A stretch of 64,000 bases of DNA from a virus (lineage: Duplodnaviria > Heunggongvirae > Uroviricota > Caudoviricetes): IMG/VR virus record IMGVR_UViG_3300044678_001935, positions 35,982 through 99,981 of that record; one strand, 5' to 3'. Positions 32,425-61,710 of the stretch are shown piece after piece. Position 1 is the first letter of the stretch, and the number at the start of each line of letters is the position of its first letter. A program made the position numbers and the translations under genes. Under the pieces are notes generated by a model that saw nothing but the letters and a program-made list of their open reading frames with translations, was not told the DNA's origin and ran no database searches.

Positions 32425-32895
32425 TTGTGGGTGGTAATCGCTGTTATTCTATTCGGAGAGTTCACGAGAAGAATGTTTTCTGAAGAAGATACTGCGCGAT
32501 GTTGGGATGCACAAAATCCTAAAACCACACCAGAAACCTTAGATCGTCTGGCTAACGATAAGAGTAATCTGGTTCGTCGTAGGGTTGCAGAAAATCCCAA
32601 TACACAATCAGAAACATTAGAACGTCTAGCTGATGACGACGATTATTGGGTTCGTTTTCGGGTTGCAATTAATCCCAACGCACCACCAGAAGCCTTAGAA
32701 CGGCTGGCGAATGATAAGGATTCTTCTGTTCGTTGGTATATTGCAAGAAATCCTATCACACCACCAGAAGTTTTAGAACTTATGGCTAATGATAGGGATT
32801 GGGATGTTCGTTGGCAGGTTGCAAGAAATCCTAACACACCGCAATACATTATAACGTATCTTAAAATCAAGGAGTTTCTGAATTATTATGAGTAA
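32425..32895 (+). CDS. LRV/HEAT-like repeat protein
   Basis: Four 26-aa repeats and the C-terminal NPNTPQYIITYLKIKEFLNYYE. The true start may be the internal ATG at 32473 (MFSEEDTARC). Confidence 0.5.
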   Translation: MWVVIAVILFGEFTRRMFSEEDTARCWDAQNPKTTPETLDRLANDKSNLVRRRVAENPNTQSETLERLADDDDYWVRFRVAINPNAPPEALERLANDKDSSVRWYIARNPITPPEVLELMANDRDWDVRWQVARNPNTPQYIITYLKIKEFLNYYE

Positions 32896-34460: not shown

Positions 34461-34801
34461 ATAATGAAGGATTGAAAATATTACAGGCGTCTAATACCAA
34501 CACACCAACAGAAATCTTAGAACGTCTGGCTAATGATGGGGATTATTATGTTCGTTCTCGGGTTGCATCTAATCACAACACATCACCAGAAACCTTAGAA
34601 CGTCTGGCTAATGATGATTTTGTGGATGTTCTTTATTGGGTTGCAGAAAATCCCAACACTCCGTCAGAAATCTTAGAACGTTTGGCTAATGATGGTTCTT
34701 GGTTTGTTCGTTGTGGGGTTGCAAATAATCCCAATACACCTCAATACATTATAACATATCTTAAAATCAAGAAGTTTCTGAATTATTATGAGCAATTATA
34801 A
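34457..34801 (+). CDS. LRV/HEAT-like repeat protein
   Basis: ATGA overlap with the helicase stop. Repeats TEILERLANDGDYYVRSRVASNHNT.., C-terminus NPNTPQYIITYLKIKKFLNYYEQL. Confidence 0.55.
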   Translation: MNNEGLKILQASNTNTPTEILERLANDGDYYVRSRVASNHNTSPETLERLANDDFVDVLYWVAENPNTPSEILERLANDGSWFVRCGVANNPNTPQYIITYLKIKKFLNYYEQL

Positions 34802-35336
34802 TCCCAACATATCACCAGAAACATTAGCTAGTCTGGCTAATAATGATTATGGGGTTGTTCGTTTTGGGGTTGCAACAAATCCTAACACACCACCAGAAGC
34901 ATTAGAACTTCTGGCGAATGATGATCATATTGATGTTCGTCGTGGGGTTGCAGTGAATCCCAACACACCACCAGAAACATTAGAACTTCTGGCTAATGAT
35001 GAGAATGTTGGTGTTCGTGTGAGGGTTGCAGGAAATCTCAACACACTACCAGAAGCATTAGAACGTCTTGCTAATGATGGCGATTATTATGTTCGTTATT
35101 GGGTTGCATCAATTACCAACACACCACCAAAAATATTAGTTATTATGGCTAACGATAAGCATTCTCATGTTCGTAGCTGTGTTGCATCTAATACCAATAC
35201 ACCACCAGAAGCCTTAGAACGTCTGGCTAATGATAATAATTGGCTTGTTCGTTGGCAGGTTGCATATAATCCCAACACTCCCCAATACATTCTAACTTAT
35301 CTTAAAATCAAGGAGTTTCTGAATTATTATGAGTAA
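34788..35336 (+). CDS. LRV/HEAT-like repeat protein
   Basis: 182 aa with six repeats, starting MSNYNPN at the conserved junction. Confidence 0.55.
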   Translation: MSNYNPNISPETLASLANNDYGVVRFGVATNPNTPPEALELLANDDHIDVRRGVAVNPNTPPETLELLANDENVGVRVRVAGNLNTLPEALERLANDGDYYVRYWVASITNTPPKILVIMANDKHSHVRSCVASNTNTPPEALERLANDNNWLVRWQVAYNPNTPQYILTYLKIKEFLNYYE

Positions 35337-35910: not shown

Positions 35911-35956
35911 AAACTCACAGGGGGTGCTATTATGGATTCATAATTCAGCTCAAACC

Positions 35957-36700
35957 ATGACCAATTACGTTTTTATCGGAGACGTTCACTCTCAATTCTC
36001 CAAATTTTCCGCAGCGGTGGATTGGATTCAAAATAATGTGAAAGATTATCACATTATTCAAGGTGGTGATCTCTTTGATTCTAGGTCAGAGGAATCTAAT
36101 TCTATGTTAGTTTATAATCTTGTTAAACTATTGGAGGATCGTATTACGGTTCTACATTCAAATCATCATATTAAACTCTATAAGATTCTAACACAAGAAA
36201 ATAATAACATGCAAAATCTGGAGAGTCTTCATAGGACTGTTATAGATTTTGATTTTGATAATAACAAAAGTCTGAAAGACGAGATCGTGAATTGGTTAGA
36301 AACCCTTCCTTACGGCGTCTCTTTTAAAGATCAGACGGGATTGGAATATAGGGCCTGCCATGCTTATTGGTTCAAAAAGCTTTATGTGCCGAATGAGTAT
36401 GAAGGACTTTATCCCATTCATGAAGTTTCAGCAAAAGCCAAGGGGCAGATGTTGTATGGAATTAGCCGAAAAGGAGAAGACGGTGGAAATGAAAGGATTT
36501 TGTGGTGGAGTAATATCAATAATTCTTATTGTGGAGAGAAAGAAGAATTTGTAAGAGTTTCTTTTCATTATCATACAGTATCTTTGGATATTGAAGGAAC
36601 TTCGGGACGAAAGCATCTGATTTTGGATGGATCTTGTGGTGACAAAGGTGGAGAATTGGTTGTCTATGATGTAAGCAATCATAGATGTGTCAGATTTTAA
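35957..36700 (+). CDS. calcineurin-like metallophosphoesterase
   Basis: Motifs FIGDVHSQ (GDxHG), GGDLFDSR (GDxxDRG) and LHSNHH (GNHE-like). The in-frame ATG at 35957 is preferred over the track start at 35924. Confidence 0.65.
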   Translation: MTNYVFIGDVHSQFSKFSAAVDWIQNNVKDYHIIQGGDLFDSRSEESNSMLVYNLVKLLEDRITVLHSNHHIKLYKILTQENNNMQNLESLHRTVIDFDFDNNKSLKDEIVNWLETLPYGVSFKDQTGLEYRACHAYWFKKLYVPNEYEGLYPIHEVSAKAKGQMLYGISRKGEDGGNERILWWSNINNSYCGEKEEFVRVSFHYHTVSLDIEGTSGRKHLILDGSCGDKGGELVVYDVSNHRCVRF

Positions 36701-39470: not shown

Positions 39471-40007
39471 TTGGCTATGTATGAAGATTATTCTAAAAAA
39501 CAATTAGCTCTTCTGGCTAATGATAAACATTATTATGTTCGTTGTGGTGTTGCAAATAATCCCAACACACAACCAGAAACATTAGATCGTTTAGCGAACG
39601 ATGAGCATCTGCATGTTCGTAGATATGTTGCACGAAATCCAAACACACCACCAGAAGCCTTAGATCGTCTGGCTAATGATGAGGATTCTTGGGTTCGTCT
39701 TGGGGTTGCAAGACATCCCAACACACCACCAGAAGTTTTAGAATGTTTGGCTAATGATAAGGATTATTCTGTTCGTTGTTGGGTTGCGAGAAATCCCAAC
39801 ACAACACCAGAAACCTTAGATCGTCTGGCTAATGATGAGCATTATTATGTTCGTACGCCGGTTGCATTTAATCCCAACACACCACCAAAAAGCTTAGAAC
39901 GTCTGGCTAATGATGAGGATTGGTATGTTCGTTTTGGAGTTACAATAAATCCCAGCACACCTCAATACATTAAAACCTATCTTAAAATTTTAAAATTATT
40001 CAAATGA
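39471..40007 (+). CDS. LRV/HEAT-like repeat protein
   Basis: 178 aa with six 26-aa repeats. C-terminus NPSTPQYIKTYLKILKLFK. Confidence 0.55.
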   Translation: MAMYEDYSKKQLALLANDKHYYVRCGVANNPNTQPETLDRLANDEHLHVRRYVARNPNTPPEALDRLANDEDSWVRLGVARHPNTPPEVLECLANDKDYSVRCWVARNPNTTPETLDRLANDEHYYVRTPVAFNPNTPPKSLERLANDEDWYVRFGVTINPSTPQYIKTYLKILKLFK

Positions 40008-41609: not shown

Positions 41610-41928
41610 TTATGAGCTAGCAGATAATCCCAACACCCCACCAGAAACATTAGAAAGTCTAGCGAATGACGATAATTGGTATGTTCGTAGCTGTGTGGCA
41701 TTTAATCCCAACACACCACCAGAAGCTTTAGAACGTCTGGCTGATGATGAGGATTTAAATGTTCGTTATTATGTTGCAAGAAATCCCAACACATTACCAG
41801 AAACCTTAGCTCGTCTGGCTAAGGATGAGGATTGTCGTGTTCGTCGTTGGGTTGCAAGAAATCCTAACACACCACAATACATCAAAGATTATCTTAAAAT
41901 CAAGGGGTTTTTGGGTTGTTATGAGTAA
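41602..41928 (+). CDS. LRV/HEAT-like repeat protein
   Basis: Starts at the conserved 8-nt overlap junction; four repeats. Confidence 0.55.
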   Translation: MSNYELADNPNTPPETLESLANDDNWYVRSCVAFNPNTPPEALERLADDEDLNVRYYVARNPNTLPETLARLAKDEDCRVRRWVARNPNTPQYIKDYLKIKGFLGCYE

Positions 41929-42100
41929 TATTGAACTAGCAGGAAATCCCAACACACCACCAGAAACCTTAGATCTTCTGGCTAATGATAATATTTGGAA
42001 TGTTCGTTATTTGGTTGCAAAAAATCCCAACACTCCACAATACATTAGAACATACCTTAAACTTCAAAGGACGATTGGTGGACTGTCCACAAGAAGTTGA
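41921..42100 (+). CDS. short LRV/HEAT-like repeat protein
   Basis: MSNIELAGNPNTPPETLDLLANDNIWNVRYLVAKNPNTPQYIRTYLK. The in-frame ATG sits at the junction TTATGAGTAATATTGA; the track ORF starts upstream at 41825. Confidence 0.4.
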   Translation: MSNIELAGNPNTPPETLDLLANDNIWNVRYLVAKNPNTPQYIRTYLKLQRTIGGLSTRS

Positions 42101-42435
42101 CAAACCAGGGATCTTGTGGTACTATTATTGAGTAGTGGGGAGTTACTCTTTTTATGATAACTTGAGATTTATGTTATGGGCTCTGCCCCGGCAGTGGCCT
42201 TCTAAGCCATTCCATTAAACGCCGGAAGGACGGTACGATGTTCGATTCATCCAGAGCCTGCTAAATGAAATAACTTATAGTTATTTACTAATCACACCTC
42301 ATTGGAGATATGATGCTCGGTTATTTAAAAAATGAGTTGAAGGCCAATCCTTAAACTGTCACACTAGACTTTGTTACAGCTAGACTTCGTGTTATGCTTT
42401 ACTTGCGAAACAATTCAACCCACCATTAATAAAAA

Positions 42436-42597
42436 ATGATTGTTCGTTTTCTTGGAATTACAGTTGGTATTTCTATCATTCTGTTTATTCTTTTTCTGAG
42501 AGGACTTCCGGTTCTTATTCTGTTGAAAGCAGTTCCTCTCATTGTCCTACTCCTGATTGGAGCTGCTTTCATCTATGCCGGAGTTACCTCCGATTAA
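42436..42597 (+). CDS. small integral membrane protein (NfeD-like partner candidate)
   Basis: 53 aa, almost entirely hydrophobic (two predicted TM helices), immediately upstream of the SPFH gene. It is below the 60-aa track threshold. Confidence 0.35.
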   Translation: MIVRFLGITVGISIILFILFLRGLPVLILLKAVPLIVLLLIGAAFIYAGVTSD

Positions 42598-42627
42598 TCC
42601 TGTTCTTTATTCTTTTTTAAAAACATT

Positions 42628-43437
42628 ATGTCTCTCGTAAAAGTTGGTATTGGTGCTGGAGCACTTCTTGGAGTTATTCTGCTTACTGCTGGACAATTCA
42701 CAACTATTAACACTGGTGAAAATGGATTATACATCGGATTTGATGGCCAGGTAAAAAATGAGATCCTTACTCCTGGTATCAAATATGATGGTCTAGGATC
42801 TATTAAAGTCTTCAACACCCGTAAGATTACTGTTACAGCAAATGATCTTCGTCCTAAAACAAAGGACAATACGATTATGAAGGAGATGGATGTGACTGTA
42901 ACTTACAGTATCAATCCTACTTCTCTGTATGAGTTCTATACGAATTATGATCTTACTAATCACGCAATTGGTGATGGTGGACAAGTTCAATTGATGTCTA
43001 GTTATATCTCTCGTCTGATTACATCCTCTGTTAATCAGTCGGTTGACGAGTTTCCTGCTCTTGCAGTAAATTCAAACTTGGAACAAATCCAAGACACTAT
43101 TAAGAATAATCTTTCAGGTGCACTCAAGAAGAACGGTCTGGAAGGTAAGATTACTATTGATTCAATTATCGTAGGTAAAGCCGACCTTCCCGATGACCTT
43201 GTTGCTTCTGTGAATCGTGTGGTTGCCGCCCAGTCTGCTAACAAAGAGCAACAAGTAAGGACTGAAACTGCTCAGTTGAAAGCGGAGGAAAACAAAGCTC
43301 TAGCATCTACAGTATCGTCACAATCACTTGAGTACCAAAGGAACGAAATTCTTCGTGCCGCGATGGAGAACGGAAGCATCCAGAAAATGCTTATTGTGAA
43401 TGGTACGCCTCTTCAGTTCTTCCCAACTGACAAATAA
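42628..43437 (+). CDS. SPFH/band-7 (stomatin/prohibitin-like) domain protein
   Basis: N-terminal TM helix followed by ..TINTGENGLYIGFDGQVKNEILTPGIKYDG..KITVTANDLRPKTKDNTIMKEMDVTVTYSINP, the SPFH pattern (..TKDN..v.vd..v.y.I.dp). Confidence 0.55.
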   Translation: MSLVKVGIGAGALLGVILLTAGQFTTINTGENGLYIGFDGQVKNEILTPGIKYDGLGSIKVFNTRKITVTANDLRPKTKDNTIMKEMDVTVTYSINPTSLYEFYTNYDLTNHAIGDGGQVQLMSSYISRLITSSVNQSVDEFPALAVNSNLEQIQDTIKNNLSGALKKNGLEGKITIDSIIVGKADLPDDLVASVNRVVAAQSANKEQQVRTETAQLKAEENKALASTVSSQSLEYQRNEILRAAMENGSIQKMLIVNGTPLQFFPTDK

Positions 43438-43508
43438 AAACTGATTGGTGATGATGGTTAAAATAATACTAACCATCATCACCCTTACGTTTCATAATTA
43501 TTTTTATA

Positions 43509-43895
43509 ATGAACTTCTTCAATAAAAACAAAAATAAAGATAAAGACACAACTCCAGAATGGGTCAAAGGTGTATGCGTGTTTCTTGAAATTCAAGAAAT
43601 CCCCGAGTGTAAAGATTGGGGTGTCGTTAATTCCTGTATTCTAATGGTAATTATGTCAGAATTTCCCGGACAATACATTGAAGATCATTGGGTTAATTTA
43701 AGAAATGGGAGTTCTTTATTAACCACAAGGTCATTTTTAGCTAGAGTCTTTATGACTGTTGCTACGAAAAAGTACAAAAAAGAATCATCTATTGAAAATA
43801 ATCTTTTCAATGTTGGGTTAGAATATAGCCGACTCCGGGATAACTTCAGAAACAAATTCTACGAGGCAGTAAACTATGGAAACACACGAGATTGA
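43509..43895 (+). CDS. hypothetical protein
   Basis: 128-aa ORF. Confidence 0.35.
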   Translation: MNFFNKNKNKDKDTTPEWVKGVCVFLEIQEIPECKDWGVVNSCILMVIMSEFPGQYIEDHWVNLRNGSSLLTTRSFLARVFMTVATKKYKKESSIENNLFNVGLEYSRLRDNFRNKFYEAVNYGNTRD

Positions 43896-44295
43896 AAATA
43901 AATTTTGGGACCTTGAATCTAATCTAAATGAGATTGAATCCAATTATTTGGATCTTGAAGAGCAGTTAGCACATTTTGTTACAGATTCGCTTCTACTTAT
44001 TGAAAACTTAGATCTTGAATCTTTGGCAATACCAATATTCGCTCAGAGTCTTATTATTCGTAATTACCGAGATTACAAATATCAAGATTTATTAAAAAAA
44101 TTACTGGTATCTAAAAATTTCACACCAGGCCTAATATACCGCACAAGAGAAATTTTTACAGAAAAAGAGTTTGAACCTTTTTTACAATACTTACTACAAA
44201 ATCCAAATTTAGACCAGTATGCAAGAGAATACTACACCAACCTAAAAAAATCTTATGACCGAAGACTTACTAGGGAACAAACTAAAAAAGCTTGA
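43876..44295 (+). CDS. hypothetical protein
   Basis: 139-aa ORF. Confidence 0.35.
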   Translation: METHEIENKFWDLESNLNEIESNYLDLEEQLAHFVTDSLLLIENLDLESLAIPIFAQSLIIRNYRDYKYQDLLKKLLVSKNFTPGLIYRTREIFTEKEFEPFLQYLLQNPNLDQYAREYYTNLKKSYDRRLTREQTKKA

Positions 44296-45025
44296 GCAAC
44301 TGGAGGCTGGGCGTTATGCCGATCCTTTTCTTCCACTCATGGCCAGAATTGATGGTAAGTGCTTCAGTAATTTCACTAGAAGTCTAAAACGTCCTTATGA
44401 CGAGAGATTTATTCGGCTTATGATAGCAACGACAAAATATCTTGTTGAAGAAAGTGAGGCTATTTTAGGTTATTGCCAATCTGATGAAATTACTCTTTAT
44501 TGGTACTTAGATAAAGAAAACTTTTCCAATAGAGAATTCTGGTTTCGTGGTAAGTTTCAGAAATTAACTTCTGTCTTAGCCTCAACTGCTAGCTCTTATT
44601 TTTGTGGTAATCTCGCACATTATTTACCAGAAAAGACTGGTAACTATCCAACCTTTGATACAAGAGTTTGGAGTGTTCCCGATTTGGAATGCGTTTATGA
44701 GAATTTTCTATGGCGGTTTAAGGATGCGAGAAAAAATTCTGTATCCATGTATGCAAGACATTTCTTTTCACCAAACCAGCTTTTTAAAAAGTCCTGTGAA
44801 GAAATGAAAGAAATGTTAGCGGTTATTCGTAGGCCGTGGGAAGAATTACCTAAATTCTTTACCGATGGGACGTATATTAAAAGACAAAAATTCTTATTGT
44901 CTCCTTATGATCCTAGATGGAATGACGTTCCCTCTCAATACCGGCCAACAAAACCTGTTGAGCGTACATTGGTTTCCGTTTGGGAACCAGAGACAACGGT
45001 ATCACTTGATTGGTTCACTTATTAA
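44255..45025 (+). CDS. Thg1-like protein (tRNA-His guanylyltransferase family 3'-5' nucleotidyltransferase)
   Basis: MARIDGKCFSNF..KRPYDERFIRLM aligns with the Thg1 region VRLDGRNFHRF..KPNDSRALQLM. GYCQSDEITLYW aligns with AYGQSDEYSFVF, SVLASTASSYF with HVASQFASSY, and the C-terminal FDTRVWSVPD...ENFLWRFKDARKNSVSMYARHFF with FDGRVVVYPS..LSWRQADCHINNLYNTVFW. Confidence 0.75.
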   Translation: MTEDLLGNKLKKLEQLEAGRYADPFLPLMARIDGKCFSNFTRSLKRPYDERFIRLMIATTKYLVEESEAILGYCQSDEITLYWYLDKENFSNREFWFRGKFQKLTSVLASTASSYFCGNLAHYLPEKTGNYPTFDTRVWSVPDLECVYENFLWRFKDARKNSVSMYARHFFSPNQLFKKSCEEMKEMLAVIRRPWEELPKFFTDGTYIKRQKFLLSPYDPRWNDVPSQYRPTKPVERTLVSVWEPETTVSLDWFTY

Positions 45026-45074
45026 ACTGGCACATCAGAAACCCGCTGACGCCTCTTGTGGTCTACAATAATCT
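45024..45074 (+). repeat. 51-bp direct repeat copy A (AAACTGGCACATCAGAAACCCGCTGACGCCTCTTGTGGTCTACAATAATCT)
   Basis: Copy B at 45357-45407 is identical except for one T/C difference. Each copy precedes a small ORF. Confidence 0.7.
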
Positions 45075-45096
45075 CACATTCAAAAAGGAAAAATTG

Positions 45097-45345
45097 ATGG
45101 CCAGTGTTGATGCAAAAGATTTGATGAATACACTCAGTAATATCTGGGTTGTAGAGTTCCGTGAGAGTGAGCTTGGTTGGGGTAGTCATACTTGGACTTT
45201 AATGTTTGACAATTATACAGAAGCTTCAAATGTAGTAAAAAACACTAACAAGGAAAATATTTCTAACACAGCCCCTGATTATTATATTCAGGCAAACCAA
45301 CCAAAATTGTTTGCAGATTATTATAAATTCAAACTGAGTTGCTAA
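45097..45345 (+). CDS. small hypothetical protein
   Basis: In-frame ATG downstream of repeat copy A with AAAAAGGAAAAA upstream. The track ORF starts at 45010 inside the repeat. Confidence 0.35.
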   Translation: MASVDAKDLMNTLSNIWVVEFRESELGWGSHTWTLMFDNYTEASNVVKNTNKENISNTAPDYYIQANQPKLFADYYKFKLSC

Positions 45346-45356
45346 GACCAATTCTT

Positions 45357-45407
45357 AAACTGGCACACCAGAAACCCGCTGACGCCTCTTGTGGTCTACA
45401 ATAATCT
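45357..45407 (+). repeat. 51-bp direct repeat copy B
   Basis: See copy A. It is followed by an ATG at 45427. Confidence 0.7.
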
Positions 45408-45426
45408 TACACAAACAGTCAACACC

Positions 45427-45609
45427 ATGCACACCATAGAACTTTTTACTTTTAAAGACGCTATACATCTTTTTAACATAGAAATGCAGATTGTTCCCAT
45501 TGCTGGAGATTATATTAAGTATAATTACATCTTATACAAAGTTATTGAAAGAGGTTTTGAAGTTTTTCCGGCTACAACTATTCGTCTTTACGTAGAAGAA
45601 ACCAAATGA
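45427..45609 (+). CDS. small hypothetical protein
   Basis: In-frame ATG within track ORF 45391..45609, downstream of repeat copy B. Confidence 0.3.
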   Translation: MHTIELFTFKDAIHLFNIEMQIVPIAGDYIKYNYILYKVIERGFEVFPATTIRLYVEETK

Positions 45610-46223
45610 ATTACACCGAAGAACAAGTTAAAGAAATCGTCAGAAATGTCATTTCTGAGATGCAATCTGTAAATGTTAAGGATCTTACACTTTACCAAAA
45701 AAGGGGTGTTGCAAGAAATCCCAATACAGCACCAGAAGTCTTAGACCGTCTGGCTAATGATAAGGATTCTTATGTTCGTTGGCAGGTTGCAGAAAATCCC
45801 AACACACCACCAGAGACCTTAGAACGTCTGGCTAATGATGACGATTATTGTGTTCGTTGGAGTGTTGCATTTAATCCCAACACACCACCAGAAACATTAG
45901 CTCGTCTAGCTAATGATGTGGATTATTGTGTTCGTACGCCGGTTGCATTTAATCCCAACACACCACCAGAAGTTTTAGAACGTCTGGCTAATGATAACGA
46001 TTCTGTGGTTCGTTATTATGTTGCAAGAAATCCCAACACATTAACAGAAACTTTAGAACGTTTGGCTAATGATAAGAGTTCTTCTGTTCGTGAATGTGTT
46101 GTACAAAATCCTAACTACAAACGGAAATCCAACAATAAGATCACTATTGAGCTTACAGAAGAACAGTTGTCTCAATTACGAAAATGTGCAGACATGTTCT
46201 CTGGTCTTTTAGGATCTGTATAA
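45606..46223 (+). CDS. LRV/HEAT-like repeat protein
   Basis: 205 aa with six 26-aa repeats, a unique N-terminal 30 aa and a unique C-terminal 35 aa (no NYYE tail). Confidence 0.55.
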   Translation: MNYTEEQVKEIVRNVISEMQSVNVKDLTLYQKRGVARNPNTAPEVLDRLANDKDSYVRWQVAENPNTPPETLERLANDDDYCVRWSVAFNPNTPPETLARLANDVDYCVRTPVAFNPNTPPEVLERLANDNDSVVRYYVARNPNTLTETLERLANDKSSSVRECVVQNPNYKRKSNNKITIELTEEQLSQLRKCADMFSGLLGSV

Positions 46224-46250
46224 CCTTACTACCATCGTATAAAAATTATT

Positions 46251-46505
46251 ATGGAAAAACTAAAATTCGTTGAAACCATTCTTGATCGGCTACAAGAATA
46301 TTCTATATCTCATCCACAACATGATACAGATGATGTGCTTAGCAAAGCACGAAAAGAACTTGAAAAACTTAATAAAAATTATGTTTTGATTGAAAACACT
46401 GAACATATTAAACTTTTGGACAATCAACGCACTCTTTATGCTCTTCATCGTGGTGGTGTTGATAATTGGGAATGGTATGACGAGTCTTTGAGCAGTTTGG
46501 ACTGA
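46251..46505 (+). CDS. hypothetical protein
   Basis: 84-aa ORF. Confidence 0.35.
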   Translation: MEKLKFVETILDRLQEYSISHPQHDTDDVLSKARKELEKLNKNYVLIENTEHIKLLDNQRTLYALHRGGVDNWEWYDESLSSLD

Positions 46506-46676
46506 CACTTTCAGAACCGTCCACAACCGCTTGACAATCCAGCCAATCCATGGTAGATTGAACAAGTTCAAAGATGAGGCAGCAATTCCTTTCTTCTGCA
46601 AATAGAAACAAAACTCATCTTGTATTAAGTTGATTCCGCATCAACAACAGCAAAAACATCAACTTGGAGATTAATT

Positions 46677-48140
46677 ATGACTTTTATGCAAGCTCTTTCT
46701 TCTGAAATGAACGTAACCACCACCGCTAATGGTGCCAAGGCTTACGAATCAACCGAAAATGAATGTCTTGATCTTTTCGGTTCAATTGGTGCCTGTCGCA
46801 ATAATATGTCTTTGGCTGAACGGTTGTTCTTTAATGCTTATAACCAACACCCAGAAACTGCCGCTAGAATTCTCTTCTACTCCCGCGATATTCGTGGAGC
46901 TAGTCAAGGTGAGCGAGCCGTATTTCGGGCTCTTATGCCGAAGTTCGCACAAAAGAATCCGACTGTTGCAAAAAAACTTGTTTCTTTGATTCCTTATTAT
47001 GGCCGATGGGATGATCTTCTATGTCTAGAAGGAACTCCTGTTTGGACAGAGGCTCTAGAAACTATTAAAGTTCAACTTAATGCAGATCTTAATAACAATA
47101 AGGTTTCTCTGGCAGCAAAATGGATGCCTAGTATCAATGCTTCAAGCAAAGAAAGCAAGCGTCTTGGTCGGATGATTGCGAATCATATGGGTTGGTCTGA
47201 ACGACAGTATCGTAAGAATCTTTCTACTCTTCGGGCGAAAATTAACATTGTTGAAACTCCGATGTGTGCCAAAGAGTGGGGACTTATCAATTATGAGAAT
47301 CTTCCTTCTCGTGCGGCGATGATGTACCGCAAAGCCTTTAAAAAGCACGATGAGACCCGATATAATAACTATCTCTCTAGTGTAGAGAAAGGTGAAGCGA
47401 AGATCAATGCTGGGACTCTGTTTCCTTATGATATTGTGAGCAAGTACCTCTACAAAGGTGCTCATAATGATAAAACTCTTGAGCTTCAATGGGATGCTCT
47501 TCCTAATTATATGGAAGGACTAGAGTTTAATGGTCTTGTTGTTGCAGACGTTTCAGGATCAATGACTTGCGCTGCTGGTATGCCATTGGCCGTTTCTATC
47601 TCACTTGCGATGTATATTGCCGAAAGAAATCCTTCAAGCGTTTGGAAAAATAAGTTCATCACTTTTTCTCAAAATCCAAAACTTCAATCTATTCTTGGTA
47701 ATAATATTGAAGAGAAAATTAGGTATCTCCAACGTGCTGAATGGGGAGTTAATACTGATCTAATGGCAGTATTCCGTACTGTTCTTGATGCTGCAACCAA
47801 TAATAATGTTGCACAATCAGATATGCCCCAGAAGCTAATTATCGTTTCCGATATGCAATTTGATAAGGCTTGTGCCTCAAATAAGCGAACTAATTTTGAG
47901 CAGATTCAGAAACTTTATCGTAAGGCTGGTTATGAAATGCCAGAACTCGTATTCTGGAATGTAAATGCTGGTGCAAATGTTCCAATTCAGGCCGATGATA
48001 ATGGAACCTGTCTTGTTTCGGGATGTAGTCCTGCTATTCTAAAGAGTGTTCTTAGTGGTAAAATCGTTTCTCCTATTGATGTTATGATGGAAAGTCTTTA
48101 TGTGGAACGATACGCTCCTATTGGTGAAGCGTTTGCATAA
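46677..48140 (+). CDS. von Willebrand factor A (vWA) domain protein (DUF2828-like architecture)
   Basis: MIDAS-type motif VVADVSGSM at the start of a C-terminal alpha/beta domain, after a long helical N-terminal region. Confidence 0.5.
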   Translation: MTFMQALSSEMNVTTTANGAKAYESTENECLDLFGSIGACRNNMSLAERLFFNAYNQHPETAARILFYSRDIRGASQGERAVFRALMPKFAQKNPTVAKKLVSLIPYYGRWDDLLCLEGTPVWTEALETIKVQLNADLNNNKVSLAAKWMPSINASSKESKRLGRMIANHMGWSERQYRKNLSTLRAKINIVETPMCAKEWGLINYENLPSRAAMMYRKAFKKHDETRYNNYLSSVEKGEAKINAGTLFPYDIVSKYLYKGAHNDKTLELQWDALPNYMEGLEFNGLVVADVSGSMTCAAGMPLAVSISLAMYIAERNPSSVWKNKFITFSQNPKLQSILGNNIEEKIRYLQRAEWGVNTDLMAVFRTVLDAATNNNVAQSDMPQKLIIVSDMQFDKACASNKRTNFEQIQKLYRKAGYEMPELVFWNVNAGANVPIQADDNGTCLVSGCSPAILKSVLSGKIVSPIDVMMESLYVERYAPIGEAFA

Positions 48141-48207
48141 TTAAATTTCTTAAGATGGTTCAGCAATTCTCATATGTTTTGGGTACATAAAAGACCATCT
48201 TGTTTAA

Positions 48208-48322
48208 AGAGCGAGTAGCTCAGGGGTAGAGCAACGTAATAACAAATCTCGTTTGAGATTTTAACAGCAATCAAAACCGCATGTTAAGCCGTAGGCCCCA
48301 GGTTCAAATCCTGGCTCGCTCA
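48208..48322 (+). tRNA. tRNA-like gene with a roughly 42-nt insertion between the D and T arms (isotype unresolved)
   Basis: Perfect 7-bp acceptor GAGCGAG/CTCGCTC, D arm GCTC-AGGGGTA-GAGC and T arm CCAGG-TTCAAAT-CCTGG. The central region is 65 nt instead of about 23 and contains the hairpin AAATCTC-GTTT-GAGATTT (48243-48260). Confidence 0.4.
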
Positions 48323-48433
48323 TCAGATGATTCAGCAATTATCTCTTCGCTAGGAAAACAAAATCATCTAGTTAAACAATTTTATCAATTCTCAAAAAAT
48401 GTTCAATTTCGTTATTAATACTAAATAACCAAC

Positions 48434-48507
48434 AGCGGGCGAGTGTAACGGTAGTCACGTCGGGCTCATAACCCGGAGGAATATGGGTTCAATTCCCAGG
48501 TCCGCCA
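48434..48507 (+). tRNA. tRNA-Met (CAT), initiator-like
   Basis: Anticodon arm TCGGG-CTCATAA-CCCGG is the same as E. coli tRNA-fMet through its three G-C pairs. There is an A1·C72 mismatch at the acceptor end, T loop TTCAATT and acceptor 3' GTCCGCC. Confidence 0.55.
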
Positions 48508-48572
48508 TCAGATGATTCAGCAATTTCAAAACTTCTTATTGGTTAGAAAAACAAAAATCATCTAGTCTTATT

Positions 48573-48693
48573 ACGAGAGTAGCCCAATTGGTTGAGGTGA
48601 GCGTAAGAAACAAAAATGATCTAGACAGATCATTCAGCAATAATACACTTTCTAAGGAACGCTTTGATGTCAGTTCAAATCTGACCTCTCGTA
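48573..48693 (+). tRNA. tRNA-like gene with a roughly 49-nt insertion in the anticodon-loop region (isotype unresolved)
   Basis: Perfect acceptor ACGAGAG/CTCTCGT and T arm GTCAG-TTCAAAT-CTGAC. A candidate anticodon stem GAGCG/CGCTT encloses 56 nt that include the hairpin AATGATCT-AGAC-AGATCATT (48614-48633). Confidence 0.35.
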
Positions 48694-48809
48694 TTTGGTA
48701 GTCGCTAGACACATAGCCTAGAAAGACGCCATATTTTCATTATAAATACAACCAACAGACTTTAACACTACAAAACGATCACTTAGTCTGTGTGATCTGA
48801 AAGAAACAA

Positions 48810-49514
48810 ATGATGTACTCAAACAACTTTGCTGCGGCAATTAAGGTAAACGGTAAAATTCTCCGTGAGTTCGGTGATACTGTTTATCTTCCATTCGGCT
48901 CTGAATATGAAATCAGACTGAAGAACTTACATTCTCAAAGAGCCAAAGTCAATATTGATATTGACGGTTCTACTGTTACAGGGAATGGTCTTATTATCCG
49001 ACCCCAACAGACTGTAGATCTAGAAAGATTCATTCGTGATAATCTAAACGAAGGTAATAAATTCAAGTTTATTGAGCGAACAGATAAGATTGAAAATCAT
49101 CGCGGAATTAAACTTGAAGATGGATTGATTACGATTCGTTTTGAGTTTGAAATTACTCTTAATAATTTTGCTATTTCAACTCCATTAACTTATAGATCTT
49201 ATGGTGGAGGTCTTTATAACTCTTCTAATGTGGTTTCTAATAATATTGTAAGCGTTCCCGTAAATGATACAGGAATCACTGTAGAAGGATCCAAAAGCGA
49301 TCAATCGTTTGGTGCGACAAGTTGGTTTGGATCTATTGGTGGGACTCATGTTTTGAACATTAAACTTTTAGGTGAAACTGAAGACAATAAAAAAATTAGA
49401 GAACCAGTTACAGTTAAAACTAAATTAGAATGTAAAACTTGTGGTACTATTAACAGTGTAACATCCAAGTTCTGTTCTGAATGTGGAACATCTTTACACA
49501 TCGTAGCCGCCTGA
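48810..49514 (+). CDS. hypothetical protein with a C-terminal zinc ribbon
   Basis: C-terminus CKTCGTINSVTSKFCSECGT (a CxxC-x9-CxxC motif). Confidence 0.45.
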   Translation: MMYSNNFAAAIKVNGKILREFGDTVYLPFGSEYEIRLKNLHSQRAKVNIDIDGSTVTGNGLIIRPQQTVDLERFIRDNLNEGNKFKFIERTDKIENHRGIKLEDGLITIRFEFEITLNNFAISTPLTYRSYGGGLYNSSNVVSNNIVSVPVNDTGITVEGSKSDQSFGATSWFGSIGGTHVLNIKLLGETEDNKKIREPVTVKTKLECKTCGTINSVTSKFCSECGTSLHIVAA

Positions 49515-50794: not shown

Positions 50795-51312
50795 CTGAAC
50801 AAGAGCAAAAACTATTAAACAAGTTTCTTTCCTCTATTGAAGAAGACGAAAAGTTCTTCAAAGAGATTATGAACCGAACAGATGAAGACGCAAGACTTCT
50901 TCAATGGATTGTCAATAATAATATCAATCCTTACGGTGTTTTTCCTTATTATATTGCTGGCAGTCTTTCCGAATTACAATCCTTTGTTGCCATCTACATT
51001 AAGATGACGTATCAAAGAAAGCACTGTGAAATTAATTACGTCAACGTTGAAAGAACAAGTAGCTCACATGATCATGTTGATAACCTAGGACCGAGAGTAG
51101 TTTTTGTTGGTAAATGGGAAGATGATTTTCATGCGCTAGTTAAAAAAGAATTAAATCTACCCGACGATGAGCTACCATGGGAATCATACACTTATGACTT
51201 TGACATCTTAGAAAACGTAGACGCCTTTATTGAAACATACAATAGGGTTGAAGATTATCACAAGAATCGTTATGAAGAAAACAGTAAGCTTGCGGATAGG
51301 TGGTTATCATGA
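50791..51312 (+). CDS. hypothetical protein
   Basis: 173-aa ORF whose stop TGA overlaps the lysS ATG (ATGA). Confidence 0.4.
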
Positions 51313-52787
51313 ATGAAGAAACATCACAATTTTTATCAGCCAGGTTGGATAAGATTTCAGAACTACAGAAAATAGGGCAAGTTGCATATGCTAATTCTTT
51401 TCACCCTACAATTAAAGCATTAGAATTACATAAGAATTATTTTAATCTGGAAAATGGTTCTGAATGTGATGATAATGTTGTTATAGCTGGTCGTATTATC
51501 GCAAGAAGAGTATTCGGTAAGTTGTCATTTTTTACTCTTTCCGATGACAGTGGAACAATTCAGCTTTATATTGAGAACGCCATCGTTGGTTCCGATATTG
51601 TTTCCTTAACCGATGTCGGCGACTGGATCGGCGCCACCGGCACCCTGCGGCGCACCGACCGGGGCGAGCTTTCGGTCAAGGTGCGCGACTGGACGATGCT
51701 CAGCAAGTCGCTTCAGCCCCTGCCCGACAAGTGGCATGGCCTGGCGGACGTGGAGAAGCGCTACCGGCAGCGCTATCTCGATCTGATCGTCTCCCCCCAC
51801 ACCCGCGAAACTTTCCGGCGACGTGCCATTTTGATTAGAACTATTCGCAATTGGCTTGACTCGCGGGAATTTTTGGAGATTGAAACTCCTATTCTACAAA
51901 CCGAAGTTGGCGGAGCCGAGGCCAAACCTTTCTCAACATATCATAACACTCTAGATCTATCATTAACTCTAAGAATTGCGACCGAGTTGCACCTTAAGAG
52001 GATGATTGTTGGTGGTTTTGAAAGAGTTTATGAGTTGGGTCGTATATTTCGTAATGAAGGTCTAAGCACCCGCCATAATCCAGAGTTTACAACCGTTGAG
52101 ATTTATCAGGCATATGCAGATTATAATGATATGATGATTTTAACAGAAAATCTCATATCTACTTGCGCAGAGACAGTTTGTGGTTCTACTGTAATAGTTT
52201 ATCAAGATGAAAAAATTGATCTAACTCCTCCTTGGAATAAATGTACAATGCACGAATTGGTTTTTGAGCATACTGGTCTTGATTTTCATCAATTTTCGTC
52301 AAGAACCGATGCCGCTAATGCTATGGAAACTATTGGATTGGTTGTTCCTGATAGTGCCGATTCCGTTGGTCGGTTATTAAACGAAGCCTTTGAACAAAGA
52401 GTTGAAAAACAGCTCATTCAACCGACTTTTGTTTTAGATTATCCTGTTGAAATTTCTCCACTGGCCCGTTCTCATAGAGAAAAACCGGAATTGGTTGAAA
52501 GATTTGAATTATTCATCTTTGGTCGTGAAATTGCCAATGCCTTTAGCGAACTCACCGATCCTTTAGAACAGAGAAAAAGATTAGAAGAACAACAAACCCG
52601 CCGCAATAATGGCGATCAAGAGGCTCACACTATTGATGAAGACTTTTTAAACGCACTTGAAATTGGAATGCCGCCAACCGGAGGACTAGGTATTGGTATA
52701 GACAGATTGACAATGTTACTTACGGATAGTCCGTCTATTCGTGATGTTATCGCTTTTCCTTTAATGCGCCCAGAGGACAAAACATGA
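51309..52787 (+). CDS. lysS: lysyl-tRNA synthetase (class II)
   Basis: N-terminal OB anticodon-binding region ([23 protein letters not shown]), motif 2 [23 protein letters not shown] and motif 3 [18 protein letters not shown] at 51309; the track lists a GTG at 51300. Confidence 0.85.
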
Positions 52788-55010: not shown

Positions 55011-55033
55011 GTTATCGCTAAATAACAATTCAC

Positions 55034-55175: not shown

Positions 55176-56234
55176 ATGAAAAAATACGATGCGGTGGTTT
55201 TCATCGGCAGGTTTCAACCTTTCCATAACGCTCATTTTGATATTATCAAAAAAGCTTATGAGCTAACTGATTATGTAATTCTTATCGCGGGTTCTCAGTA
55301 TCAACCACCTAGCTATAAGAATCCATTTCAGGCTTTAACTTTTGACGGTTATTTTGATTCAATTGGAAAAACCATTGATAATTATCTTAGAGTTAACTTT
55401 GAGGATTATTATGACGAAGACCGTAACTATGAGTTCTCGTTTTGTTTTCAACGAGATATTTACGGTGATAATCTCTGGTGCAAAAGTGTACAGGAAAAAG
55501 TATCAGAATTATTCTTAGGTCAAGAAGCTGAAATAGCCATTATTGGTTGTAATAAGGATGAAAGTTCTTATTACTTAAATATGTTCCCTCAGTGGGATCT
55601 TATTGAGGTTCCTCTGGATCAAAACCTTAGTGCTACACAGATCAGAGAACTTTATTTCGTTGAAGAACCAAATATGAGTTTTCTTCAAGGTGTTGTATCG
55701 TCTGAGGTTTTTAATTATCTTGACGAACACAAAAATACCGAATGGCACAATAATATCGTAAACGAACGAAATTTTATTGAAAAATACAAAGCCCAATATG
55801 CTTCTTTCCCATATCCACCAACATTCGTTACTGTAGATTCTGTAGTATTTCAATCCGGTCATGTTCTCGTTGTTCGGAGAAATGCTTATCCTGGTAAAGG
55901 TCTTATTGCTCTTCCTGGTGGATTCTTAGACGCTAATAGTGATGCCTCTTTGGAAGATGCTATGATTAGAGAACTGAGAGAGGAAACAGGGCTTAAAGTG
56001 CCAACTCCGGTTCTCAAGGGATCTATTAAAGATGTTAAAGTTTTTGATTCTCTTTATAGAAGCTCTCGTGGACGGACTATTACTCATGCTCATAACATTG
56101 TATTGTCTGATGGAGAACTACCTAGAGTCAAAGGTGATTCTGATGCTGATAAGGCTTTCTGGTTACCATTCAGCCAACTTAAATCAGAGCAATTTTTTGA
56201 AGACCATTATCAAATTATCAATTATTTTCTATGA
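55176..56234 (+). CDS. natV: bifunctional NMN adenylyltransferase / Nudix hydrolase (NadM-Nudix, NatV-like)
   Basis: N-terminal GRFQPFHNAH (the H/TxGH nucleotidyltransferase motif) and a C-terminal Nudix box GGFLDANSDASLEDAMIRELREETGL. Confidence 0.8.
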   Translation: MKKYDAVVFIGRFQPFHNAHFDIIKKAYELTDYVILIAGSQYQPPSYKNPFQALTFDGYFDSIGKTIDNYLRVNFEDYYDEDRNYEFSFCFQRDIYGDNLWCKSVQEKVSELFLGQEAEIAIIGCNKDESSYYLNMFPQWDLIEVPLDQNLSATQIRELYFVEEPNMSFLQGVVSSEVFNYLDEHKNTEWHNNIVNERNFIEKYKAQYASFPYPPTFVTVDSVVFQSGHVLVVRRNAYPGKGLIALPGGFLDANSDASLEDAMIRELREETGLKVPTPVLKGSIKDVKVFDSLYRSSRGRTITHAHNIVLSDGELPRVKGDSDADKAFWLPFSQLKSEQFFEDHYQIINYFL

Positions 56235-56431
56235 TTATGAATCAAGTGCAACTGAGTAAAATGTCAAGAGAAGAAAAACTTAAGGCATTGGCTTTAATTG
56301 ATAAAAACATTGAGACAACAAAACTTAAATTAAGCCAATTACATCATGAAGCCTATAAGTTGCAATATGAATTAGGTTATTACGCTAAAAAAGAAATCCT
56401 TTATGGAATTAAATATGATGTTCAAAATTAA
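56231..56431 (+). CDS. small hypothetical protein
   Basis: 66-aa ORF with ATGA overlap to natV. Confidence 0.3.
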   Translation: MIMNQVQLSKMSREEKLKALALIDKNIETTKLKLSQLHHEAYKLQYELGYYAKKEILYGIKYDVQN

Positions 56432-56951
56432 TAAAAATCGAAACTTCCTAGAAGACTATAAGAAATATTATTTCTTTTATGATACTCCATTGTCAAATTG
56501 GGCAGGTTATTCTTTTGTTGATACAACAACTGGAGTTTCTTACAATTGCTCAGAACAGTTTATGATGCACAAGAAGGCCCTACTTTTTTCTGATTATAAT
56601 ACTGCCGGCAAGATCATGAATAAAGAATACCCAGGAGATCAAAAAGCCTTGGGTAGAATGGTGGCAGGCTTTGATGTTAGCATTTGGAATGAATATGCAA
56701 GAGATCTTGTGTATGAAGGATGTTATTATAAGTTTACCCAAAATAAGGAAGCTTATGAATATCTTATGGGGACAGAAGGTTATCTTCTAGTAGAGGCATC
56801 ACCAACAGATACTATTTGGGGTATTGGACTTGGAGGTTATGATGCAGATAATCAAGATCCTAAAAATTGGAGAGGAACTAACTGGTTGGGTGAAGTTCTT
56901 ACACAACTACGAGAAGATTTGAAAGATAACCCAGAGTTAGTTTTATTCTAG
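56403..56951 (+). CDS. NADAR (DUF1768, YbiA-like) domain protein
   Basis: ..NCSEQFMMHKKALLF..KALGRMV..WNEYARDLVYEGCYYKFTQNKEAYEYLMGTEGYLLVEASPTDTIWGIGLGG matches the NADAR pattern (EH....K......LGR...W......M......KF.QN..L...LL.T...L.E.SP.D..WG.G). Confidence 0.65.
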   Translation: MELNMMFKINKNRNFLEDYKKYYFFYDTPLSNWAGYSFVDTTTGVSYNCSEQFMMHKKALLFSDYNTAGKIMNKEYPGDQKALGRMVAGFDVSIWNEYARDLVYEGCYYKFTQNKEAYEYLMGTEGYLLVEASPTDTIWGIGLGGYDADNQDPKNWRGTNWLGEVLTQLREDLKDNPELVLF

Positions 56952-57027
56952 TCAGATGTAAAGACTTTAAAACATAATTCAACGATAGACGTTGAATTTT
57001 ATCCACTATCATTTTAAGGAGTTTAAA

Positions 57028-60360: not shown

Positions 60361-61710
60361 ATGTCATTGTTTCTAACAGATACTCTAACAAAAGAAAAAA
60401 GGGAATTCGTTCCACTAGAAAATAACACTGTCAACATATACTCCTGTGGTGTGACCGTTTATGATCTAACACACTTTGGTCATGCTCGCAGTTTTATAGT
60501 TTGGGATGTTCTTCGTAGACACCTAAAATGGCTTGGATATGCTGTTAAATTTGTTCAGAACTATACCGATATTGATGATAAAATTATTGCAAAAGCCAAT
60601 GAACAGAATCAAACAATCAAAGAAATAACAGAAAAGTACATTAACGAGTATGAGAAAGATATGACCTTTCTTAATGTTATGTTGCCGGATAAGATGCCTA
60701 GAGCCACAGATCATTTATCCGAAATTCGCAGTATGATTAAAACTCTAGAATCTAAAGGTGCTGCATATACTTTAGATGGTAGTGTTTATTTTTCTGTTAA
60801 TACTCATGAGAATTATGGTAGATTATCTGGAAGAATTTTAGACAATCAAAAAGATAACTCAGGTGAATTTCTTAAAAAGAATTCTTTTGATTTCGCATTA
60901 TGGAAAGCTTCTAAACCAGGTGAACCGAGTTATTCTTCTTATTGGGGAAATGGTAGACCGGGATGGCATATAGAATGTTCGGCGATGATCTGGAAGGAAT
61001 TTGGAAAGACTATTGATATCCATCTTGGGGGTTCTGATCTGATTTTTCCACATCATGAGAATGAAATAGCCCAAACTGAAGTTGCAACAGAAAATCAATT
61101 ATCTCGTTGGTGGTTACATTCTGGAATGGTAATGGTTGATGGTAAAAAAATGAGCAAGTCTCTAGGAAACTTTACAACCATTCGGTCCTTACAAGAATCA
61201 GGATTTAGTCCAATGGCCATAAGGCTTTTCGTATTACAGGGGCATTATCGCAAACCTCTTGATTTTACGGAAAATGCTTTAAAAATGGCAACGAATTCCT
61301 GGAATAAATTAAATGAAGTTTTGTTGTTAAAATCTTCAAAAGAAACTACCGAAATTGATTTTGATGATAAGCTAAGATCTTATCACAATAATTTTATAGA
61401 TGCTCTTAACGACGATCTCAATACTTCTCTTGCAATCTCAGTTCTTTTTGTTTTGGTTAAAGAAATAAGAGTGAATAACTCAGACTCTTATATTTTACTT
61501 TTGTGCGAATTATCAGCAATTCTTGGTCTTTTTGGAGAGCAAAAGTCCAATATAAGCGAATCAGAAATTTTAGAACAAATTGAATTAAGAAATTCAGCAA
61601 GAAAAGAAAAGAATTTTACTCTTGCGGATGAGATCAGAGAAAAATTATTAACTTCTGGTGTTAAACTTGAAGATACAAAAGACGGAACTAGTTTTAATTT
61701 TATTGTGTGA
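60361..61710 (+). CDS. cysS: cysteinyl-tRNA synthetase (class I)
   Basis: HIGH-type motif THFGHARS, zinc ligands CGVTVYD and WHIECSAM, the KMSKS motif GKKMSKSLGNF, and overall collinearity with bacterial CysRS (NYTDIDDKII, PRATDHL, FPHHENEIAQ). Confidence 0.85.
   Translation: MSLFLTDTLTKEKREFVPLENNTVNIYSCGVTVYDLTHFGHARSFIVWDVLRRHLKWLGYAVKFVQNYTDIDDKIIAKANEQNQTIKEITEKYINEYEKDMTFLNVMLPDKMPRATDHLSEIRSMIKTLESKGAAYTLDGSVYFSVNTHENYGRLSGRILDNQKDNSGEFLKKNSFDFALWKASKPGEPSYSSYWGNGRPGWHIECSAMIWKEFGKTIDIHLGGSDLIFPHHENEIAQTEVATENQLSRWWLHSGMVMVDGKKMSKSLGNFTTIRSLQESGFSPMAIRLFVLQGHYRKPLDFTENALKMATNSWNKLNEVLLLKSSKETTEIDFDDKLRSYHNNFIDALNDDLNTSLAISVLFVLVKEIRVNNSDSYILLLCELSAILGLFGEQKSNISESEILEQIELRNSARKEKNFTLADEIREKLLTSGVKLEDTKDGTSFNFIV

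Follow-up and report, generated by a model that had tools for sequence, protein, structure and literature searches.

Eukaryotic Thg1, the tRNA-His guanylyltransferase, adds a non-templated G-1 opposite A73 and acts on tRNA-His only, whereas Thg1-like proteins (TLPs) add templated nucleotides to many tRNAs (PMC5041481). The only activity demonstrated in vitro for the TLP branch is Watson-Crick-templated 3'-5' repair of 5'-truncated tRNAs (PMC3701042, PMC5041481). DdiTLP3, which edits the 5' ends of mitochondrial tRNAs in Dictyostelium, and DdiTLP4, which acts on substrates other than tRNA, are TLPs with demonstrated biological roles (PMC5041481). Among enzymes of solved structure, BtTLP of the bacterium Bacillus thuringiensis (PDB structures: 4KGK and 4KGM) is the closest, by sequence and by fold, to the protein described here, which is encoded by the open reading frame (ORF) 44255-45025 in a 64,000-nucleotide stretch of the tailed-phage record IMGVR_UViG_3300044678_001935. 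This whole stretch is called the window below. The ORF encodes a genuine protein of the Thg1/TLP family.

Family assignment and active site of the phage TLP

The gene and the sequence blocks used in the comparison are the following:
44255..45025, + strand: TLP gene, stop codon included; ATG-to-stop ORF, 256 aa
44345..44365, + strand: RIDGKCF block, residues 31-37 (alignment to 4kgk)
44387-44422, + strand: KRPYDERFIRLM block, residues 45-56 (located in the ORF translation)
44390..44392, + strand: codon of R46, at the position of the ATP-positioning lysine, K43 in BtTLP and K44 in ScThg1 (alignments)
44477..44497, + strand: QSDEITL block, residues 75-81 (alignment to 4kgk)
44711..44749, + strand: WRFKDARKNSVSM block of the C-terminal half, which holds M165 (alignments to BtTLP and yeast Thg1)

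The ORF has exactly the boundaries given in a preliminary description of the window, which had been made from the sequence alone, and the RIDGKCF, KRPYDERFIRLM and QSDEITL blocks named there were all located in it. Of the two profile searches proposed at that time, the one with Pfam PF04446 (Thg1) gave a significant match (E 1.1e-26; 93.8 bits, where the curated cut-off is 29.2) that covers profile positions 5-130 of 130. The other, with the Thg1 C-terminal domain, PF14413, gave no match in the protein at E <= 1; a PF14413 match is precomputed for a few of its homologs. Even so, sequence similarity to BtTLP extends into the C-terminal half, as far as residue 211, and the fold matches along the entire chain. 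PHROG 4717, 'tRNA-His guanylyltransferase', matches with E 1.1e-63.

The best match among PDB sequences is BtTLP (4kgk, phmmer E 3.8e-22, residues 4-211); yeast, Candida and human Thg1 match with E values from 1.9e-10 to 1.6e-07, and the TLP of Methanosarcina with E 5.6e-4. The AlphaFold2 model, built with 26 homologs as input (pLDDT 91.2, pTM 0.87), has 32 matching chains in the PDB at a Foldseek E <= 0.001, all of them Thg1 or TLP structures with TM-scores of 0.62-0.79, and the top match is again BtTLP (4kgm, E 8e-18). Residues 1-20 are kept in the homologs, with D4, G7, K11 and E14 invariant, which supports the annotated start codon. At the other end the phage protein, which is about 30% identical to BtTLP, differs from it by some 40 extra conserved residues, modelled as a β-hairpin, with P226, P231 and R237 invariant.

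Residue roles described, from mutants and structures, for BtTLP and for yeast and human Thg1 (PMC3701042) were transferred to the phage protein through pairwise alignments and an alignment of 125 sequences; the aligned relatives span 42-98% identity, and some columns were counted over 124 sequences. The active-site carboxylates are D30, D75 and E76 in BtTLP and D29, D76 and E77 in hTHG1 (PMC3701042). Those of BtTLP correspond to D33, D77 and E78 of the phage TLP, all invariant; by alignment to BtTLP, D33 and D77 would be the first and the second metal-binding carboxylate, and E78 the third carboxylate. Likewise invariant are E14 and R31, equivalent to E12 and R28 of BtTLP, which position the incoming nucleoside triphosphate (NTP), and S76, equivalent to S74, which contacts the activating NTP. 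R31, D33 and G34 are kept in 124 of 124 aligned relatives, and the S76-D77-E78 block in 125 of 125 sequences. The acidic residues whose absence, according to the preliminary description, would speak against the assignment, i.e., the aspartate of RIDGK and the SDE triad, are thus present and conserved throughout.

In ScThg1, nucleotidyl transfer depends on R27, K96 and R133, plus E13, and 5' activation on K44 and S75/S76 (PMC3701042). K103 and R137 of the phage TLP, equated with ScThg1 K96 and R133 by alignment position only, are invariant, and D157, K160 and N161 are invariant or nearly so. BtTLP K43 positions ATP, and its replacement by alanine lowers adenylylation about 10-fold and leaves guanylylation unchanged (PMC3701042). 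The phage TLP has R46 at this site, where 120 of 124 relatives, among them those of phages 201phi2-1, D69 and BcepSaruman, have Arg and 4 have Lys. To judge from these alignments, Arg46 is a clade-wide variant and probably not a defect. The exchange of Lys for Arg in this mostly phage clade predicts an altered preference between ATP and GTP in 5'-end activation.

M165 of the phage TLP occupies the position of BtTLP M158, where eukaryotic Thg1 has Asn161, and Met is found there in 123 of 125 sequences. The segment 'wrfkdarknsv' aligns with yeast 'WRYVDTHINNL' and with BtTLP 'WRQQDASKNSISM'; phage 'DARKNSVSM' resembles BtTLP 'DASKNSISM', unlike yeast 'DTHINNL'. The phmmer bit score is 82.5 with BtTLP vs 44.2 or less with Thg1 proteins. 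Met165, the sequence around it and these scores therefore place the phage protein with TLPs and not with tRNA-His guanylyltransferases of the eukaryotic type; on sequence criteria it is a bacterial-type TLP with the complete set of catalytic residues. Eukaryotic Thg1 (yeast 5XOX, Candida 3WBZ, human 3OTB and 7CV1) shares with it the Pfam domain, the fold and the two-metal active site, but the match is weaker, and the phage protein lacks the Asn161-type signature and its surrounding sequence that mark a bona fide eukaryotic-type Thg1; nor is there a tRNA-His in the window.

The Thg1 palm domain has relatives in the GGDEF and CRISPR polymerase domains (PMC2904730), and GGDEF, cyclase and Cas10 palm domains do match the model of the phage protein weakly in Foldseek (E 0.04 or higher). 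It might be supposed, then, that the protein has no role at RNA 5' ends and is either an inactive remnant or a palm enzyme that has taken on the synthesis or breakdown of a nucleotide signal. This appears improbable in the extreme: the ORF is full-length, the residues for both steps of 3'-5' addition are strongly conserved in the 125 sequences, the GGDEF and cyclase matches are not significant, and PADLOC returned no match.

Distribution and gene neighbourhood of phage TLPs

The preliminary description held a Thg1-family gene to be unusual in a phage, which is an overstatement. By tblastn, TLP relatives are found in 151 of 50,697 GenBank phage records, many of them named tRNA-His guanylyltransferase; most belong to large or jumbo phages (Bacillus, Caulobacter, Mycobacterium, Brevundimonas, Erwinia, Vibrio, Aeromonas, Burkholderia and others). 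In IMG/VR a relative is encoded on at least 582 viral contigs, and the protein database search yielded 763 at E <= 1e-5. About 60 clusters lie at 60-98% identity, and copies in this range come from metagenomic contigs only. Besides having its own PHROG, the family has been noted in the literature. The gene of phage 201phi2-1, annotated as 'putative Thg1' in its GenBank record, was one of the sequences aligned in 2010, when Thg1 was assigned to the palm-domain polymerases (PMC2904730), and a comparative survey of jumbo phages in 2021 counted Thg1 as an RNA repair function by which tRNA 5' ends are restored (PMC7824862). The copy in the window thus belongs to an already annotated phage gene family, and its lineage is what sets it apart.

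Phage TLPs of PHROG 4717, such as gp319 of Pseudomonas phage 201phi2-1, gp332 of Burkholderia phage BcepSaruman and VPHD69_0113 of Vibrio phage D69, belong to the same clade, are 38-44% identical to the window protein over 81-94% of the length and have Arg at position 46. Like it, they are products of stand-alone genes, 250-285 aa long, in large phage genomes. Unlike them, the window copy comes from a cyanophage-like, Kyanoviridae-related genome. Among the 60 of the 151 GenBank records listed, the best match is 46.5% identical, and Synechococcus phages B3 and B23 are not among these 60; no near-identical DNA was found in GenBank phages. B3 and B23, which are Kyanoviridae with genomes of 244 kb, are the nearest cultured relatives of the window phage, and since the closest matches of two window proteins, the tail protein (54% identity) and the DUF2828 protein (64%), are found in them, the window is assigned to a relative of T4-like cyanophages. 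The new copy adds that the TLP family reaches such phages, and it places a TLP with the clade-typical Lys-to-Arg exchange at the ATP-positioning site in a region rich in translation genes; knowledge of the TLP family itself is left unchanged.

We examined the neighbourhood of the gene in 80 TLP loci from IMG/VR (individual loci carry L numbers), where the seed-based tblastn used for repair genes is insensitive and its low counts are lower bounds. A tRNA gene lies 149-981 nt from the TLP in 4 of the 5 closest loci (L010, L012, L013 and L014), and the fifth is cut by the contig end. In L003, tRNA-Gly comes directly after the TLP, 10 or more tRNAs follow in an array, and a CCA-adding enzyme is encoded 6 kb upstream. 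The TLP of L005 has a metallophosphoesterase after it and a small ORF before it, which is itself preceded by a CCA-adding enzyme. Vibrio phage D69 has, within 12 kb, a CCA-adding enzyme, the TLP, an RNA ligase of Rnl1 type, a polynucleotide kinase and a phosphoesterase. Overall, a tRNA is found within 10 kb of the TLP in 22 of the 80 loci and within 2 kb in 15, and when the two nearest ORFs of at least 165 aa per locus are considered, RNA_ligase (PF09414) is the commonest neighbour Pfam family, with 5 of 150 ORFs. Judged from these raw counts, the enrichment of TLPs near tRNA and repair genes is suggestive only.

In the window, lysyl-tRNA synthetase (LysRS), cysteinyl-tRNA synthetase (CysRS), two tRNAs and a Ro60-like protein are found within 17 kb, and the TLP region is a stretch devoted to translation and counter-defence. 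The sole repair-type candidate among the window ORFs scanned is a weak metallophosphoesterase at 35924-36700. A conserved protein partner beside the TLP was sought and rejected, the four flanking small ORFs having no homolog in any of the 80 loci. Two genes upstream of the TLP a membrane protein of the SPFH/Band 7 (prohibitin-like) family is encoded (42628-43437, + strand; PF01145, E 4e-20), which is not conserved beside TLPs elsewhere. Scans of 42000-49500 for sigma-70 promoters and terminators gave results no better than shuffled sequences.

Candidate role in repair of tRNA 5' ends

The reading that we favour, with a probability of roughly 0.55, is that the phage TLP performs template-dependent repair of 5'-truncated tRNAs. 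By analogy with BtTLP, this palm-domain enzyme would extend RNA in the 3'-5' direction: it would activate a 5'-monophosphate end with ATP or GTP, or take a 5'-triphosphate directly; the incoming NTP, paired to the opposite strand of the acceptor stem, would then attack the activated end via its 3'-OH; and, with removal of pyrophosphate, the shortened 5' end would be rebuilt nucleotide by nucleotide. In the infected cell, missing 5' nucleotides of host or phage tRNAs may be restored in this way, so that the tRNA pool stays usable. The TLP would be one item of a translation-maintenance kit of the phage, together with tRNAs, LysRS, CysRS and the Ro60-like protein with its tRNA-like RNAs. We infer the tRNA substrate from the preference of TLPs in vitro (PMC5041481) and from the loose association of phage TLPs with tRNA genes, CCA-adding enzymes and RNA ligases; activity and benefit to the phage are likewise proposed by analogy. 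A repair role has been put forward for jumbo phages too (PMC7824862).

The proposed logic, a phage enzyme that restores damaged tRNA, resembles that of the T4-type pair Pnk and Rnl1, which reverses cleavage of the anticodon loop. The chemistry differs, however, being end healing and ligation at the anticodon loop in one case and polymerisation at the 5' end in the other, and no Pnk or Rnl was found in the window.

Several points weigh against repair. No phage TLP has been characterised experimentally in the literature that we searched, and a biological function has been established for no bacterial or archaeal TLP (PMC5041481). Our search brought up no host nuclease or defence system that is known to trim tRNAs at the 5' end, and PADLOC reported no defence-system match; the part against host defences targeting tRNA, which the preliminary description thought possible, would thus be hypothetical. 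The ATP-positioning Lys of BtTLP appears as Arg46 in the phage alignment. Most of the 80 loci have neither a tRNA nor a repair gene near the TLP, whose immediate neighbours are not conserved even in the closest relative, and neither Pfam nor PHROGs revealed an RNA ligase, a polynucleotide kinase or a CCA-adding enzyme in those window ORFs that were scanned. Phage TLPs are nonetheless attractive for settling the function of prokaryotic TLPs, as a lytic phage retains a gene only if it is useful in infection; TLP-bearing phages in culture include 201phi2-1, CcrColossus, Bacillus phage Bc431v3 and Vibrio phage D69, in which gene deletion and sequencing of tRNA 5' ends are straightforward.

The name carried by PHROG 4717 and by most of the GenBank records implies another role, that of a tRNA-His guanylyltransferase adding G-1 opposite C73, either as the only source of this nucleotide or as a backup if RNase P removes it. 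We surveyed tRNAs with ARAGORN in 82 TLP-bearing viral loci plus the window stretch, 161 tRNAs in all. In two phage contigs (L048 and L076) a tRNA-His does lie within 4 kb of the TLP gene. Reportedly, G-1 addition occurs in a bacterial case as well, as the title of Heinemann 2010, cited in PMC3701042, indicates. Some archaeal TLPs add G-1 post-transcriptionally, whereas many TLP-bearing organisms encode it in the gene (PMC5041481). The preliminary description had raised the question of whether any phage tRNA here needs a G-1. The window, with its tRNA-Met(CAU), tRNA-Pro(UGG) and two tRNA-like RNAs, contains no tRNA-His, and the two tRNA-His genes near related phage TLPs, the only ones among the 161 tRNAs, both encode G-1 with C73, an ordinary bacterial arrangement in which nothing has to be added. 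The phage protein is, moreover, of the TLP and not of the Thg1 type. A dedicated role in supplying G-1 to tRNA-His is therefore unsupported, and we consider it quite unlikely; for phage proteins of this kind, the label 'tRNA-His guanylyltransferase' used in databases is probably misleading.

The tRNA survey also bears on 5'-editing of phage tRNAs, in which mismatched positions 1-3 would be removed and re-synthesised from the 3' strand. The precedent is DdiTLP3 with its mitochondrial tRNAs in Dictyostelium (PMC5041481). DdiTLP3 and DdiTLP4 are alike to the proposed phage enzyme in templated 3'-5' polymerisation (PMC5041481), a likeness drawn from their descriptions; they are eukaryotic, and the mismatch signature at acceptor positions 1-3 is absent from phage tRNAs adjoining TLP genes. 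One tRNA of the window would fit editing at first sight, as tRNA-Met (48434-48507) has an A1-C72 mismatch, and its sequence is identical in L001. A 1:72 mismatch, however, is a hallmark of bacterial initiator tRNA, and the GGG:CCC anticodon stem of this tRNA-Met is of the initiator type. Of the 161 tRNAs, 10 are mismatched at 1:72, 8 of them tRNA-Met(CAU), while mismatches at 2:71 and 3:70 are seen in 2 and in 1; tRNA-Pro and both tRNA-like RNAs of the window have fully paired acceptor stems. With no editing signature seen among the 161 tRNAs near TLP genes, we regard 5'-editing as very improbable, and repair of truncated tRNAs remains the reading that we prefer.

The Ro60-like gene, its tRNA-like RNAs and other genes of the window

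Ro60 proteins with adjacent Y RNAs that mimic tRNA are known in bacteria and in some phages (PMC4201824, PMC12135203). The corresponding part of the window lies downstream of the TLP and consists of the following features:
46677..48140, + strand: gene of a Ro60-like RNA-binding protein (DUF2828 and DUF7788 by Pfam; PHROG 850 'RNA-binding protein', E 1e-145)
48148..48700, + strand: RNA array, beginning with a leader hairpin (Rfam tRNA matches of 50.7, 38.7 and 37.3 bits)
48209-48322, + strand: tRNA-like RNA of 114 nt with a 53-nt insert (Rfam tRNA)
48434-48507, + strand: initiator-like tRNA-Met(CAU) (Rfam tRNA; ARAGORN)
48573-48693, + strand: tRNA-like RNA of 121 nt with a 54-nt insert (Rfam tRNA)

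The Ro60-like gene begins 1.6 kb downstream of the TLP, and its product has the vWA MIDAS motif D291-S293-S295. By sequence the DUF2828 protein has no match in the PDB, and its profile gave only a sub-threshold match to TROVE (E 0.24); the relationship to Ro60 therefore rests on the fold search. The five best PDB matches of the AlphaFold2 model (pLDDT 81.6) in Foldseek are all Ro60/TROVE structures, with E values from 1.5e-6 to 3.5e-5, and the next match has E 0.07. They include Ro60 of Thermus phage phiLo (9kop, 9l5y) and Xenopus Ro (1yvr, 1yvp).

ARAGORN detects tRNA-Met alone in the array. Besides its mismatch, this tRNA has an anticodon stem whose lower part consists of three G:C pairs. 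In both long elements the acceptor, D and T arms are normal, and an insert of 53-54 nt replaces the anticodon loop. None of the tRNAs and tRNA-like elements of the array encodes CCA, and their 3' ends read A-TCA. Homologous elements are found 3' of the DUF2828 gene in L001, in L090-L095 and in Synechococcus phage B3, whose annotation calls it a pseudo-tRNA of 110 nt. In alignments that include seven other loci, the acceptor and T stems covary, with double changes in 10 of 28 pairs. The insert forms a hairpin in which one pair covaries. Next to it comes a ACAGCAAT/TCAGCAWT motif (also written ACAGCAAT/TCAGCAAT) that hardly varies, and this combination of helix and motif recurs, permuted, in the spacer that follows each element. 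If 1 mismatch at most is allowed, the 15-mer AGATGATTCAGCAAT occurs in only four places of the window, all within 48153-48641. The Ro60-like gene with its tRNA-like RNAs looks like a variant of the Ro60/Y-RNA module with a new predicted RNA topology.

Other assignments of the long elements were tried and rejected. ARAGORN can read them as tRNAs with introns, Leu(UAA) and Leu(AAG); these solutions lack the long variable arm of bacterial tRNA-Leu and place the introns at non-canonical positions, and one of them has an anticodon stem of 3 bp only. The Rfam family YrlA at 48148-48261 scored 17.5 bits, below its gathering score of 69 (E 0.89), which is no match.

DUF2828 genes of more distant phages usually lie just downstream of ordinary tRNA arrays. 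In L094 and L095 (2028-2279) the tRNA arrays near the DUF2828 gene contain a permuted, two-piece tmRNA of the cyanobacterial type (116 bits), and in L137 (1-384) the tRNA array near that gene contains a GOLLD RNA (169 bits, cut by the contig end). A CTAAATAAC box occurs only twice in the 64 kb, at 48421-48429 and 55018-55026 (+ strand), one 5 nt and the other 8 nt before position +1 of the two canonical tRNA genes; in L090, CTAAATAAT stands 5 nt upstream of tRNA-Met. CTAAATAAC might serve as a processing signal or as a box resembling a late promoter, with transcription beginning at tRNA +1 or right beside it.

The array, which lies 3.2 kb downstream of the TLP, suggests that the TLP might act on small structured RNAs other than tRNA, for instance on the insert-bearing tRNA-like RNAs, whose 5' ends it would maintain or extend. 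There is a precedent in DdiTLP4, which acts on 5S rRNA and class I ncRNAs. The window and L001 share the synteny of TLP, Ro60-like gene and tRNA-like array, and CcrColossus and Bacillus phage G, which have Ro60 homologs and Y-like RNAs (PMC12135203), both also carry a TLP. However, of the 80 TLP loci only 1 has TLP and DUF2828 genes in proximity, by which count a conserved link between the two genes was rejected. Synechococcus phage B3, moreover, has the DUF2828 gene and the tRNA-like RNA with no TLP in the 19-kb region examined, and the tRNA-like RNAs of the window have complete, paired acceptor stems. Such substrates are unlikely in our judgement. As only the closest relative (L001/L010) shares this placement of the Ro60-like gene with respect to the TLP, we treat the Ro60-like module as context and not as a part of the TLP mechanism.

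A more far-reaching possibility, which we rate as a long shot, would make the region an island of tRNA surveillance, with the TLP as its 5'-end arm, acting jointly with the Ro60-like protein, the tRNA-mimicking RNAs, LysRS, CysRS and tRNAs. The TLP would there either reverse an undiscovered host defence that trims 5' ends or complete phage tRNAs whose transcripts start at or just inside +1; if true, either version would be the first physiological role of a prokaryotic-type TLP. The Ro60-like module with its tRNA-like RNAs, together with the two aminoacyl-tRNA synthetases, is arguably more noteworthy than the TLP.

Genes of the window outside the TLP and the Ro60-like module include the following:
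51300-52787, + strand: LysRS of bacterial type (NCBIfam lysS, 689 bits, above the cut-off)
60361-61710, + strand: CysRS (PF01406, 407 bits)
55176-59343, + strand: cluster of NAD salvage and ADP-ribose genes
55176-56234, + strand: NMN-adenylyltransferase-like protein plus NUDIX
56403-56951, + strand: NADAR domain protein
56992-59343, + strand: nicotinamide phosphoribosyltransferase, 783 aa
59429-59905: HNH endonuclease, after the nicotinamide phosphoribosyltransferase
32425-32895, 34788-35336, 39471-40007, 41825-42100, 45606-46223, 62739-63155 and 63152-63589, + strand: LRV/HEAT-like repeat proteins, paralogs
46251-46505, + strand: 84-aa protein resembling the T7 gp5.9 RecBCD inhibitor

In the nicotinamide phosphoribosyltransferase an intein-like insertion is suggested, because residues from about 298 to 615 match intein-bearing PHROGs and not the enzyme itself. 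The small paralogous proteins, at least seven in the window, are built of 'leucine rich repeat variant' (LRV/HEAT-like) repeats, and their expansion is similar in the relative L001/L010. The 84-aa protein is encoded between the TLP and the Ro60-like gene and belongs to PHROG 6234; its C-terminus matches the T7 inhibitor (PF25708, E 1.3e-8).

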